From the IMG/VR virus record IMGVR_UViG_2740892231_000007: a DNA stretch of 9,779 nt. One strand, given 5' to 3'. The translations under genes and the position numbers were made by a program. Source of the DNA: a virus. Its lineage: Duplodnaviria > Heunggongvirae > Uroviricota > Caudoviricetes. How positions within the stretch are numbered: the stretch's first letter is position 1; each line of letters opens with the position of its first letter. This document shows, one piece after another, positions 6,709 to 9,460 of this stretch. Under the pieces are notes generated by a model. That model did no database searches and was not told the origin of the DNA. It worked only from the letters and a program-made list of their open reading frames with translations.

Positions 6709-6731
6709 AGCCGGAGAAATCCGGCTTTTTT
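6709..6731 (+). terminator. Rho-independent terminator
   Basis: Stem AGCCGGA / TCCGGCT with GAAA loop followed by T5 (6727-6731), 6 nt after the PerC-like stop. Confidence 0.7.
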
Positions 6732-6921
6732 GTAGGTACTCCTGGTGGGGGTGGCCTGTCCACGGGGCGGAGGGGCGCGGAAAAAGGCGCATTTTTTGAT
6801 TTTTATGGCACCATCACCACCACTATAAGTTATTGATATGTTGAGAAATAAAAATTTTTAGTGTCGAATCAGGTTGTTTTTTGTTCATCACCGGAACGTT
6901 CCCGAAAACATTTACAAAAAA
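6726..6921 (+). repeat. Copy A of a duplicated intergenic module of about 190 bp (GC-rich core 6741-6800, AT-rich tail ending TTTACAAAAAA)
   Basis: By-eye alignment with 9263-9460. Shared blocks include CCTGGTGGGG-TGG-CCTG-CACGGGGCGG-GCGCGGAAAAA-GCGCATTTTT-GATTTTAT, AATTTTTAG/GTTCGA and TTTACAAAAAA. Estimated identity roughly 75-80 percent, with indels. Confidence 0.5.
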
Positions 6922-7159
6922 CAGGCGCAAAAAAAGCGCCCCCGATTGCTGTTACCGGAGGCGCTTTTACACGACAAAGGAGTTTTTATCGCCAGGATGA
7001 CGAGTCTTAATACTGCTTCAATGGCAAAAATGCGTCAATAACTTTGCCTTTCTGAGAATAATCAGAAAAATCATAATCTGATTTTCAGGTATAAAATGAT
7101 TTATCTATTACTTTTATCGATCAATAATGATGCCCGTTAATCAAAACGGAGGCGGATTT

Positions 7160-7354
7160 ATGCCAGAGAACAACACCAGAAAGCCGGATAAAAGTGCCAC
7201 GGTACACATAGACGCCGGAACTATGGAGAAGATCGAACGCTATCAGCAGTTCATCAAAGATAATCACCCGGGTATGCCAGTACCCACGAAAGGACAAATC
7301 ACACGCAGCGCGGTTGAATATTGGTACAGGGCAACGTTAGGGGTCTGGCTATGA
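7160..7354 (+). CDS. Hypothetical small protein (64 aa), translationally coupled to the protease-capsid gene
   Basis: ATG 7160 with GGAGG RBS 7 nt upstream (preferred over the track's 7127 start, which has no RBS). Stop overlaps the downstream ATG (ATGA at 7351-7354). No family recognised. Confidence 0.5.
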   Translation: MPENNTRKPDKSATVHIDAGTMEKIERYQQFIKDNHPGMPVPTKGQITRSAVEYWYRATLGVWL

Positions 7355-9240
7355 AAACATGGTTTTCCATTAAGGCTATGGCAGATGTTGTCTATGTGCG
7401 CATTTATGACGAGATCGGCGGGTACGGTGTAAAAGCATCGGCACTTACTGACGAGATCAACGCGTGTGGTAATGCGTCTGAAATCCATCTTCGCATCCAT
7501 TCACCTGGTGGCGACATCTTTGAAGGGCTGGCTATCTATAACGCCCTGAAAAATCATCCGGCAAAGAAAATTGTACACATTGAAGGCATGGCGGCTTCTA
7601 TGGCCTCGTTTATTGCCATGTGTGGCGATCACATCGTTATGCCTGAAAACGCGATGATGATGATACATGCCCCCCGTGGTGTTACTGCCGGAGTGTCGGG
7701 CGACGTTCGCCGCTTTGCTGACCTGATGGACAAGCTGGGCGACACGATGGCGGAAACCTACGCCGGAAGAACGGGCAGGAGCAAACAGGAAATCACCGCC
7801 ATGATGGAGGCGGAAACCTGGATGGATGGCAATGAGTGTAAGGCTAACGGCTTCGCAGATGAGGTTATACCCGCGATTACAGCAATGGCCCGAATTGAAT
7901 CAAAACGAATCGGAGATTTTTCAAATATGCCGGAAAAAATTAAAAGCATGATCAGCCAGAAAACTACCAGTGGCGAACAGGAACGACTTAACGGCATCCG
8001 TGAATTGTTTGGCACGTTCAACGGAAGATATAACGACCTGGCTATAAGTTGTCTTGCTGATTCAGAATGTAGCGTTGAGAATGCACGCGAACGCCTTTTA
8101 CTCGCTATGGGTAAAGAATCAACGCCAACAAACAAAACCACCCCCGCAAATCTTTACTACGCGTACACGGATAACGGCAACATAACCGGCGATGCAATGC
8201 GCCAGGGGCTTAATGCGCGTCTTGGTCACGAACGGGCCGAACGCGGTAATCCTTACGCCATGATGAGCCTTTTCGATATGGCACAGGCATCATTAACCCA
8301 TCGTGGTATAAGCACGGGCAGCTACAGCACACGCTCGCAGATAGTAAACGCGGCATTCACCCACAGCAGCAGCGATTTTACCGATATCCTTGCTGGTGGC
8401 GCTGAAAAATCAGTGCTTGCAGGCTGGGAGCACAGCGGCGAAACATTCCGCCAGTGGACGAAAAAAGGTTCCCTTTCAAACTTCCGGGAAGCCCGCCGCG
8501 TTGGTATGAATGGCTTCTCAACGTTAAACAAAGTGCCGGAAGGGGCAGAATATAAATACATCACCACCAGCGATCGCGGTGAACCCATCGCGCTGGCTAC
8601 TTACGGGAATATTTTCAGCATTACCCGCCAGGCTATAATCAATGATGACCTTGATCAGTTATCAACGGTGCCAATGGCTATGGGCCGTGCAGCATCAAGA
8701 ACGGTGGGAAATCTGGTTAATCTGGTGCTTACAGGCAACGTAAAACTTTCTGACGGAATAACGCTGTTTGACAAAAAACACAGCAACCTGATTGAAGCAG
8801 GACTGACAACACCGGGACTTAGTGCAGCACGTCACCTGATGCGCACACAGAAGGACAAAAATGGCGAAGTGCTGAATATTGCGCCTAAATTCCTTTTAGT
8901 TCCGGCAGCACTGGAAGATCGCGCGTTGCAGATGATTAACTCAACCGCACCTTTCGGGGCTGATAAAAACAGCGGGATCTTTAACCCGTATCACAAGCTA
9001 CTTGATATCATCGTCGATCCCCGCCTTGATGATATCAGCGAAAAACAATGGTACATGCTTTCCGCACAGGGAACGGACACAATCGAGGTGGCTTATCTTG
9101 ATGGCAATGACGAGCCTTACCTTGAACAGCAGGAAGGTTTTATCGTTGACGGCGTGGCCTGGAAAGTCCGTATTGATGCAGGTGTGGCAGCTCTGGATTA
9201 TCGCGGTATGGTCAAATCAGGCGGGACAGATTCACTATGA
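7351..9240 (+). CDS. Fused ClpP-type (S14) prohead serine protease and capsid-like protein (629 aa from ATG 7351)
   Basis: ATG 7351 with AGGGGT RBS 6 nt upstream; the track's TTG at 7321 is less likely. N-terminal third carries ClpP-family motifs IHSPGGDIFEGLAIYNAL, GMAASMASFIA (candidate Ser) and MMIHAP (candidate His), as in ClpP INSPGG / GQAASMGA / MIHQP. The remaining 400-plus residues are one continuous frame with size and character of a major head subunit; that assignment is by context and composition, not a recognised motif. Confidence 0.75.
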   Translation: MKTWFSIKAMADVVYVRIYDEIGGYGVKASALTDEINACGNASEIHLRIHSPGGDIFEGLAIYNALKNHPAKKIVHIEGMAASMASFIAMCGDHIVMPENAMMMIHAPRGVTAGVSGDVRRFADLMDKLGDTMAETYAGRTGRSKQEITAMMEAETWMDGNECKANGFADEVIPAITAMARIESKRIGDFSNMPEKIKSMISQKTTSGEQERLNGIRELFGTFNGRYNDLAISCLADSECSVENARERLLLAMGKESTPTNKTTPANLYYAYTDNGNITGDAMRQGLNARLGHERAERGNPYAMMSLFDMAQASLTHRGISTGSYSTRSQIVNAAFTHSSSDFTDILAGGAEKSVLAGWEHSGETFRQWTKKGSLSNFREARRVGMNGFSTLNKVPEGAEYKYITTSDRGEPIALATYGNIFSITRQAIINDDLDQLSTVPMAMGRAASRTVGNLVNLVLTGNVKLSDGITLFDKKHSNLIEAGLTTPGLSAARHLMRTQKDKNGEVLNIAPKFLLVPAALEDRALQMINSTAPFGADKNSGIFNPYHKLLDIIVDPRLDDISEKQWYMLSAQGTDTIEVAYLDGNDEPYLEQQEGFIVDGVAWKVRIDAGVAALDYRGMVKSGGTDSL

Positions 9241-9246
9241 CAACAA

Positions 9247-9268
9247 GGCGGCACCAGCCGCCTTTTTT
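9247..9268 (+). terminator. Rho-independent terminator
   Basis: Stem GGCGGC / GCCGCC with ACCA loop followed by T6 (9263-9268), 7 nt after the capsid ORF stop. Confidence 0.7.
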
Positions 9269-9460
9269 GCGGGTCCTCCTGGTGGGGTGGGCCTGAACAC
9301 GGGGCGGGCGGCGCGGAAAAAAGCGCATTTTTGTGATTTTATCGTCATCATCATCATGTGTGTAACCTATTGTTTTTAATGTGGTTGATGCAAAAAAGAT
9401 GATGATTGTGGTTAATTTTTGTTCGACATCTTTTAGCGTGACAGATTCTTTACAAAAAAT
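9263..9460 (+). repeat. Copy B of the duplicated intergenic module of about 190 bp
   Basis: See copy A. Core CCTCCTGGTGGGGTGGGCCTGAACACGGGGCGGGCGGCGCGGAAAAAAGCGCATTTTTGTGATTTTAT, tail ending TTTACAAAAAAT about 38 bp upstream of the 9498 ATG. Confidence 0.5.

Follow-up and report, generated by a model that had tools for sequence, protein, structure and literature searches.

How does a phage satellite without terminase genes of its own get its DNA packaged, and why should one carry two similar noncoding modules around its capsid operon? Both questions arise from the 9,779-nucleotide (nt) stretch analyzed here (IMG/VR record IMGVR_UViG_2740892231_000007, referred to as the window), in which two direct copies of a module of ca. 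190 bp (copy A, 6726-6921; copy B, 9263-9460) bracket a protease-capsid operon. The window is a Gram-negative phage-inducible chromosomal island (PICI) of the EcCICFT073 type, of ca. 10 kb and without terminase genes. Judging from sequence comparison, the two modules are almost certainly derived from phage cohesive-end (cos) sites, and at least one of them probably functions in packaging. The reading that we consider likely is that both are lambda-type cos sites, with a common cutting core joined to the cosB of two types of small terminase subunit (TerS), which would allow two kinds of helper phage to be served. That the pair as such confers two helper specificities seems to us somewhat better founded than the opposite. 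The satellite would have copied both modules from its helper phages.

Self-comparison of the window with a repeat finder returned an ungapped direct repeat of 115 nt with 70% identity (6721-6835 versus 9258-9372; 2537 nt from start to start), and a gapped alignment carried the match to the common sequence TTTACAAAAAA at 6911-6921 and 9450-9460. This significant similarity extends beyond the short GC-rich hairpins and confirms the two direct copies, with their boundaries and like endings, of a preliminary description made from the letters alone. However, that description had taken the copies to be similar over their full length, and only the first ca. 80 nt are (6726-6805 versus 9263-9342, 84% identical). 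The AT-rich tails that follow are 50% identical in an alignment of six sequences and 63% in a global pairwise alignment, for which shuffled tails gave 56 ± 3.5%; they are alike in position, length, and a few blocks (TTTTTGTTC and TTTACAAAAAA). The conclusion drawn from conservation, namely a shared function, holds for the core; that the tails belong to two different types had gone unnoticed. A profile of the core scored 68 bits for copy A (E = 1e-18) and 86 bits for copy B (E = 2e-24), with no further match elsewhere in the window.

The surroundings of the copies were much as first described. The 64-amino-acid (aa) open reading frame (ORF) and the capsid fusion gene lie between them, and each copy begins in the T-run of a stable hairpin, that of an intrinsic terminator (Table 1). 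The T-run of the perC terminator extends into the cosQ-like element of copy A, and the perC gene of EcCICFT073 is likewise followed by a near-identical hairpin; the terminator of the capsid gene overlaps copy B where the latter starts. The distance from the end of the copy to the next ORF is 238 nt for copy A (ORF at 7160) and 37 nt for copy B (ORF at 9498). The GCGC-A5/6-GCGC stretch described as a mini-hairpin is present as a sequence, but it folds no better than shuffled versions (z = -0.5 and +0.5), so it was rejected as a structural element. At the two ends of copy A (6726-6734 and 6913-6921), 9 nt are repeated in inverted orientation without a mismatch (TTTTTTGTA and TACAAAAAA), which may be due to chance because they are a T-run and an A-run; a shorter one (TTTTTTG/CAAAAAA) is found at the ends of copy B and of the type 2 phage cos regions.

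Searched by BLASTN against phage genomes, the module was confined to lambdoid coliphages and their relatives, with 75 to 90% identity over 150 to 200 nt. Copy A matched 1720a-02 and CP-1639 (90% over 167 nt) and copy B matched Stx2 (Shiga toxin 2) phages and VT1-Sakai (87 to 90% over ca. 200 nt), with weaker matches in mEp460, mEp213, mEp043, Ayreon, and Fels-1. All the annotated records examined, seven from phages or prophages (mEp460, Ayreon, 1720a-02, VT1-Sakai, and Stx2_112808 among them), have the matching block flanked by the lysis genes and terS, the very position that cos occupies in lambda. Of the functions first suggested for the module, a packaging-related site is the one borne out by this location and by the lambda-like elements and spacing given below, and the proposed search of satellites and helper phages found it in both (see below).

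The distances to the next gene agree with this placement. The records of cdtI and Tritos begin at GGGCGGGAGCGT, equivalent to positions 6765 and 9302 of the window, base 1 being the choice of the depositors, and that of Tritos ends in ...CCACG. The terS gene starts at base 189 of the mEp460_4F5 record, 191 of lambda (Nu1), and 197 of Tritos, and the ATG of the 93-aa ORF, which occupies the place of terS in the phages, is 197 nt from the first cosN base of copy B. The start of the mEp460_4F5 record (CCACGGGGCGG) was rejected as a mapped end and taken as a hint only, since it lies 4 bases before the lambda-equivalent position and the record is 3 nt short of mEp460. Between copy B and the 93-aa ORF (9461-9500), the 37 nt still align with the phage terS leader up to the start codon, which indicates that the ORF took the place of terS exactly at the start codon. 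Within the cassette, the homologues of this ORF have the widest distribution; of the 1287 Escherichia coli genomes with a match, most have it in this region only. Its product was rejected as a TerS- or Rpp-like protein (no PDB relative at E ≤ 0.1, no Pfam family, and no BLASTP similarity to TerS), as was that of the 64-aa ORF, also with no PDB relatives, Pfam family, or BLASTP similarity to TerS; both matched uncharacterized PHROG families only.

Within the core, both copies contain a cosN-like motif with conserved flanks (CACG-GGGCGG) and, ca. 30 nt upstream, a cosQ-like element, weaker in copy A; the lambda counterparts are GGGCGGCGACCT and TTTACGGGTCCTTCC, respectively (PMC6092414, supplement). 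The order of the elements is that of lambda, and the distance from the cosQ heptamer to cosN is 31 nt in both copies versus 29 nt in lambda. The window and lambda agree in the left half of cosN (ACGGGGCGG) and differ in the right half. Copy B matches lambda at 7 of the 12 cosN positions and cdtI at 8, with an identical ACG flank, and its cosN-like element is the same as in the cores of 1720a-02 and Stx2_112808. Over the six aligned sequences, copy B and three closely related phages have cores with 95 to 98% identity. The cosQ heptamer GGGTCCT is invariant in lambda, phi80, cos1 and cos2 of EcCICFT073, and all the aligned phage cores; copy A, with AGGTACT, departs from every other cos compared, so its cosQ feature is weakened. 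For mEp213 and LLS, two related phages, a 12-nt 5' overhang with the sequence GGGCGGCGCGCT has been inferred (PMC12315714).

Each tail, of ca. 115 nt, is homologous to the phage DNA that runs from cosN to terS, and the two belong to different groups, one made up of copy A and 1720a-02 (the type is also found in CP-1639) and the other of copy B, VT1-Sakai, and Stx2_112808. Tail identity was 77 to 92% within a type and 46 to 53% between types, with conserved blocks at offsets of ca. 44 to 58, 92 to 107, and 119 to 130; neither tail is related to the R sites of lambda cosB. Lambda TerS reads cosB through a winged-helix domain, which forms its N-terminal part, and lambda and phage 21 have a common cosN but different cosB sequences, matched to different N-terminal domains of TerS (Nu1). 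The pattern in the window is that of this pair. Between type 1 and type 2 phages, TerS residues 1 to 75 are 57% identical and the remainder (residue 76 to the end) 95%, while within one phage group the values are 93 to 100% and 100%. As the tail type tracks the N-terminal type of TerS, and given the role of the winged helix in lambda, each tail type appears to pair with its own TerS DNA-binding domain, and the cores with a common large terminase. The part played by the N-terminal winged helix at cosB is also discussed in PMC9026076.

Table 1. Features of the window in order of position; a slash separates the cohesive end from its flanks.
Feature	Position	Strand	Details
Tyrosine integrase	1-1242		
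AlpA-like regulator	1739-1945		
DUF4222 protein	4275-4574		
RepA/AAA_25 helicase	4571-5980		
Probable iterons	5975-6170		
PerC	6431-6703		
Intrinsic terminator after perC	6709-6731	+	Stem 6709-6726 plus T-run; -12.6 kcal/mol, z = -3.5
Copy A, cosQ-like element	6729-6743	+	TTTGTAGGTACTCCT; 9/15 positions as in lambda cosQ
Copy A, cosN-like element	6761-6780	+	CACG/GGGCGGAGGGGC/GCGG; cohesive end 6765-6776 by homology
Copy A, cosB-like tail, type 1	6806-6921	+	77% identical to phage 1720a-02; ends in TTTACAAAAAA
Copy A, candidate TerS-binding block	6808-6822		CACCATCACCACCAC
Copy A, candidate TerS-binding block	6883-6894		GTTCATCACCGG
Hairpin just after copy A	6932-6968		9-bp stem; part of the older perC-capsid intergenic region
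64-aa ORF	7160-7354	+	phrog_4934; first gene of the bracketed operon (7160-9240)
ClpP-protease/major-capsid fusion	7351-9240	+	Second gene of the bracketed operon
Intrinsic terminator after capsid gene	9245-9268	+	Stem 9245-9264, T-run 9263-9268; -15.3 kcal/mol, z = -3.3
Copy B, cosQ-like element	9266-9280	+	TTTGCGGGTCCTCCT; 12/15 positions as in lambda cosQ; GGGTCCT intact
Copy B, cosN-like element	9298-9317	+	CACG/GGGCGGGCGGCG/CGGA; cohesive end 9302-9313 by homology
Copy B, cosB-like tail, type 2	9343-9460	+	79-80% identical to VT1-Sakai and Stx2 phages; ends in TTTACAAAAAA
Copy B, conserved tail block	9347-9358		ATCATCATCATG
Copy B, conserved tail block	9396-9406		AAGATGATGAT; inverted partner of the preceding block
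Copy B, conserved tail block	9416-9430		TTTTTGTTCGACATC
93-aa ORF	9498-9779	+	phrog_1561

The same arrangement recurs among related satellites. In a collection with one genome per species, the satellites of Kluyvera, Yersinia, Buttiauxella, Moellerella, and Rahnella had a single cos directly after the capsid gene (in the phages, cos lies ca. 4.4 kb upstream of the capsid gene). This survey had pointed to an upstream cos specific to E. coli, an idea overturned by IMG/VR, where 80 more loci were found, including a second lineage (capsid ca. 62% identical to that of the window) with an upstream cos of another type. All the E. coli-type cassettes (capsid 93 to 100% identical) with enough upstream flank have the upstream cos, and all those with enough downstream flank have the downstream one too. 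Members of the second lineage often have two, and some the downstream one alone. Across 38 distinct two-cos satellites of both lineages, the median identity between the two copies was 92% for the cores and 62% for the tails, the latter close to the value for shuffled tails given above. The tail types never swap position: type 1 was the upstream tail of 35 elements and type 2 the downstream tail of 27. In the second lineage, both positions are taken by other types, the upstream one matching cdtI, Tritos, and HannyBb at 93 to 96% and the downstream one mEp460, PhiR47, and phi458 at ca. 82%; the N-terminal parts of TerS from cdtI and mEp460 are 24% identical. The four tail types thus correspond to four phage TerS types, of which each satellite combines two. 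Two IMG/VR members of the second lineage (L133 and L134) carry a third cos core, inverted and 3' of the capsid gene (ca. 8895, minus strand), like cos2 of EcCICFT073.

By analogy with lambda, the terminase of a helper would, after induction and replication, use TerS to bind the cosB tail, nick the DNA at cosN, and package it rightwards, a type 1 helper starting at copy A and a type 2 helper at copy B. A helper of either TerS specificity could in this way start packaging on the satellite concatemer without an Rpp-like adaptor. The large terminase would read cosQ and cosN, which are common to both copies, and therefore either copy could also end packaging, at a later cos reached when the head is full. 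In lambda, a cos is skipped when heads are under-filled, and the 2.5-kb A-to-B interval would need to be skipped in the same manner; that from B to A would be ca. 7.6 kb if the island measures ca. 10 kb, as estimated from att-like repeats in two chromosomal copies (L094 and L001). The weakened cosQ of copy A in the window could, speculatively, lower termination there. A more elaborate version, which we put forward as a tentative possibility, is a two-key system that needs no adaptor, with one cutting core kept in duplicate and the cosB of another helper TerS class attached to each copy, in which the copy A allele (AGGTACT) is perhaps tuned to start and not to stop. Such a copy would prevent premature termination between direct cos sites separated by 2.5 kb.

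Several observations weigh against the reading of both modules as cos sites that serve two helper kinds. Direct cos sites at this distance could cause premature termination; deletion of cos2 in EcCICFT073 raised transfer (PMC6092414), and many related satellites have the downstream cos alone. The satellite tails are only 77 to 80% identical to the nearest phage tails. In the window, copy A has two changes in an otherwise invariant cosQ heptamer, plus changes in cosN, and may work poorly or for initiation only. Among the aligned cos sites, CACG and CGCGG are separated by 10 to 12 nt, which leaves the exact cohesive end uncertain; the nick positions were placed by homology only, and no measured termini were found for this phage group.

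The strongest rival, which we consider unlikely though not negligible, is that copy B is the sole working cos and copy A a dead or decaying one, gained by recombination with a phage and with no role in packaging. The downstream position is universal, and ca. 20 IMG/VR satellites, together with those of the five genera named above, have that cos alone. Copy A itself looks like an insertion of ca. 190 bp, with the perC terminator on one side and a second hairpin, part of an older intergenic region, on the other, since in EcCICFT073 a hairpin, of different sequence, stands at that position directly after the perC terminator. The cos modules are variable spots inside an otherwise near-identical cassette, and the core of copy A is polymorphic, with 22 variants in 35 elements; the window and strain 95-3322, which has a canonical allele, are 90% identical in it (capsid gene, 99.3%). 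The allele of the window (GTAGGTAC), with its altered GGGTCCT heptamer, is satellite-specific and was absent from all phages in the collection searched. The core of copy B is almost invariant; its tail varies between the conserved blocks and is 87% identical between the window and an element of E. coli O157:H7 (capsid gene, 99.3%). Against a dead copy A, however, about half of its alleles keep the canonical (A/G)CGGGTCC, its tail is 95 to 99% identical among cassettes, and the upstream cos occurs in all E. coli-type cassettes with sufficient flank and, with other tail types, in the second lineage. Moreover, duplication followed by decay would not give cores with ca. 92% identity beside near-background tails that match different phage types.

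Far less probable is that the repeats are chiefly homology arms, the cos cores allowing the capsid cassette to recombine between satellites and helpers with packaging as a secondary matter. The block 6709-9779, which begins at the terminator just before copy A, is found at 97 to 99% identity in 143 complete E. coli genomes and on different backbones. In E. coli O157:H7 (L090, NZ_CP066759.1, 1015-13567), the cos-capsid-cos cassette is accompanied by a primase in place of the RepA helicase (only 297 of 1410 nt of the replication gene align, at 62%), and perC is absent; this element is inserted in a prophage terL gene, which fits the published class of helper-embedded satellites, and the cos of that prophage (L090:304-540), of type 2, is ca. 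8.6 kb away. These observations speak for homology arms, but they leave unexplained the two phage-matched tail types and the retained lambda-like spacing, and direct repeats around the capsid operon should favor its deletion over its spread. Recombination through the cores is, in any case, compatible with the two-cos explanation and not a true alternative to it.

Hardly credible is that the modules act on the transcription of the genes that follow them, whether as late promoters dependent on a factor, as antiterminators, or as RNA processing sites, which the preliminary description had also proposed. In favor of this, each copy has a terminator before it and a gene start after it, TTTACA at its end resembles a -35 hexamer, and genes for the activators PerC and AlpA lie upstream. 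Against it, a plus-strand scan found no sigma-70 promoter in either copy or in the 240-nt spacer, no acceptable -10 could be read at 16 to 18 nt after TTTACA, the mini-hairpin is unstable, and the phage equivalent of the block is a cos region and not a promoter region. An Rfam search of the whole window at a permissive threshold gave three weak matches, none credible (E = 0.16 to 0.48), all within 6887-7057 and none in the core of copy A or in copy B; the sole overlap with a copy (6887-6985; 21 bits versus a gathering score of 114, E = 0.48) involves the last 35 nt of copy A. Farther downstream, at 7059-7100, the inverted repeat AATCAGA-N10-TCTGATT, followed by GGTATAAAAT, lies within A/T-rich DNA that the satellites from other genera partly conserve upstream of the capsid operon. 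The capsid operon may have its real promoter and operator here.

An E. coli PICI with a pair of cos sites has been described before: EcCICFT073 has two, both of which worked when cloned (PMC6092414, PMC6739421), and its packaged DNA consists of phage-sized multimers (PMC6092414). The window is an island of this kind; EcCICFT073 has helper-like cosQ and cosN in both sites and one cos just upstream of a homologue of the 93-aa ORF. However, its sites are inverted and flank rppA (10556, plus strand, and 11295, minus strand, in our copy, L009), whereas those of the window are direct and flank the capsid operon, and its cosN is that of lambda, from which the window differs. Furthermore, the cosB of its cos1 is unlike that of any phage and needs Rpp, while both tails of the window are homologous to phage cosB and no rpp lies beside them; a tblastn search of the window with the protein at the rppA position (L009:10660-11094) gave chance matches only, all with E > 1. 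What distinguishes the window is thus the direct orientation and the phage-type cosB of two classes, and the open-access literature searched gave no account of a cos pair in which two cosB types each match a phage type.

The lambdoid phages of the Gifsy-2, mEp460, cdtI, and Stx types share with the window cos homology of 75 to 90% and the same capsid fusion family. They have one cos followed by terS and terL, whereas the window has two, followed by genes unrelated to terminase. The staphylococcal islands SaPIbov5 and SaPIbov4 (PMC5052747, PMC8569155) also carry a helper cos and a capsid homologue without a terminase of their own, and two putative cos sites have been reported for SaPIbov4 (PMC6092414), but the host is Staphylococcus and the sequences are unrelated. 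Finally, the satellite 11capE has a 258-bp stretch, 90% common with its helper, at the position of lambda cos (bioRxiv 10.1101/2022.07.18.500453). Like the O157:H7 version of the cassette, inserted in a late gene of the prophage, it is embedded in its helper; the report describes one shared cos-like stretch, while the cassette of the window has a pair with two tail types.

The phages able to mobilize a PICI decide how far the island spreads, and related elements are found in Shiga-toxin-producing E. coli (O157:H7, O145, O121, and O111). If each cos serves a different TerS, the advantage of having two would be a wider helper range, obtained by collecting the cosB modules of helpers rather than by evolving an Rpp-like adaptor. 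The 1720a-02, VT1-Sakai, mEp460, and cdtI types would then provide four natural matched cosB/TerS pairs with which to study packaging specificity, in a group whose cos is unmapped. If one copy alone works, the locus would be an ordinary PICI cos site accompanied by a relic.

As for the rest of the island, the window has an integrase, alpA, a replication gene with a probable origin, and mostly one gene direction, and it encodes no terS, terL, or rpp. Its gene order is common to EcCICFT073, with several proteins 78 to 100% identical, and this, together with the gene content, led to its assignment as a Gram-negative PICI. The closest chromosomal copies (L001; L094, strain 95-3322) adjoin tRNA-Pro between yejM and narP, which is the yejM-luxR site that Fillol-Salom et al. 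give for several E. coli PICIs (EcCIs); repeats like the att core of that site are 10.5 kb apart in L001 and 9.5 kb apart in L094. Over its full length, the capsid fusion shares 51% identity with the fused head protein of the phages in which the cos module occurs, which makes these phages likely helpers.

Just 3' of the RepA-type helicase gene, the region 5975-6170 holds three direct copies of CT(G/T)TAAAAAGTGAGGCG..AAAAGTGAG at a spacing of 84 to 85 nt, as well as inverted copies (CTCCTCACTTTT), and probably serves the island as a replication origin of the iteron type. At 3798-3807, within the ORF 3519-4043, ten consecutive G could give rise to slippage frameshifts or sequencing errors. Operator-like repeats appear in two intergenic regions (2259-2320 and 2980-3060): TTT(T/A)TGTGTATTGACAC is present twice, 41 nt apart, and ACTGGAATCCAGTATA forms an inverted pair, 49 nt apart, beside a leftward YlcI-like gene.

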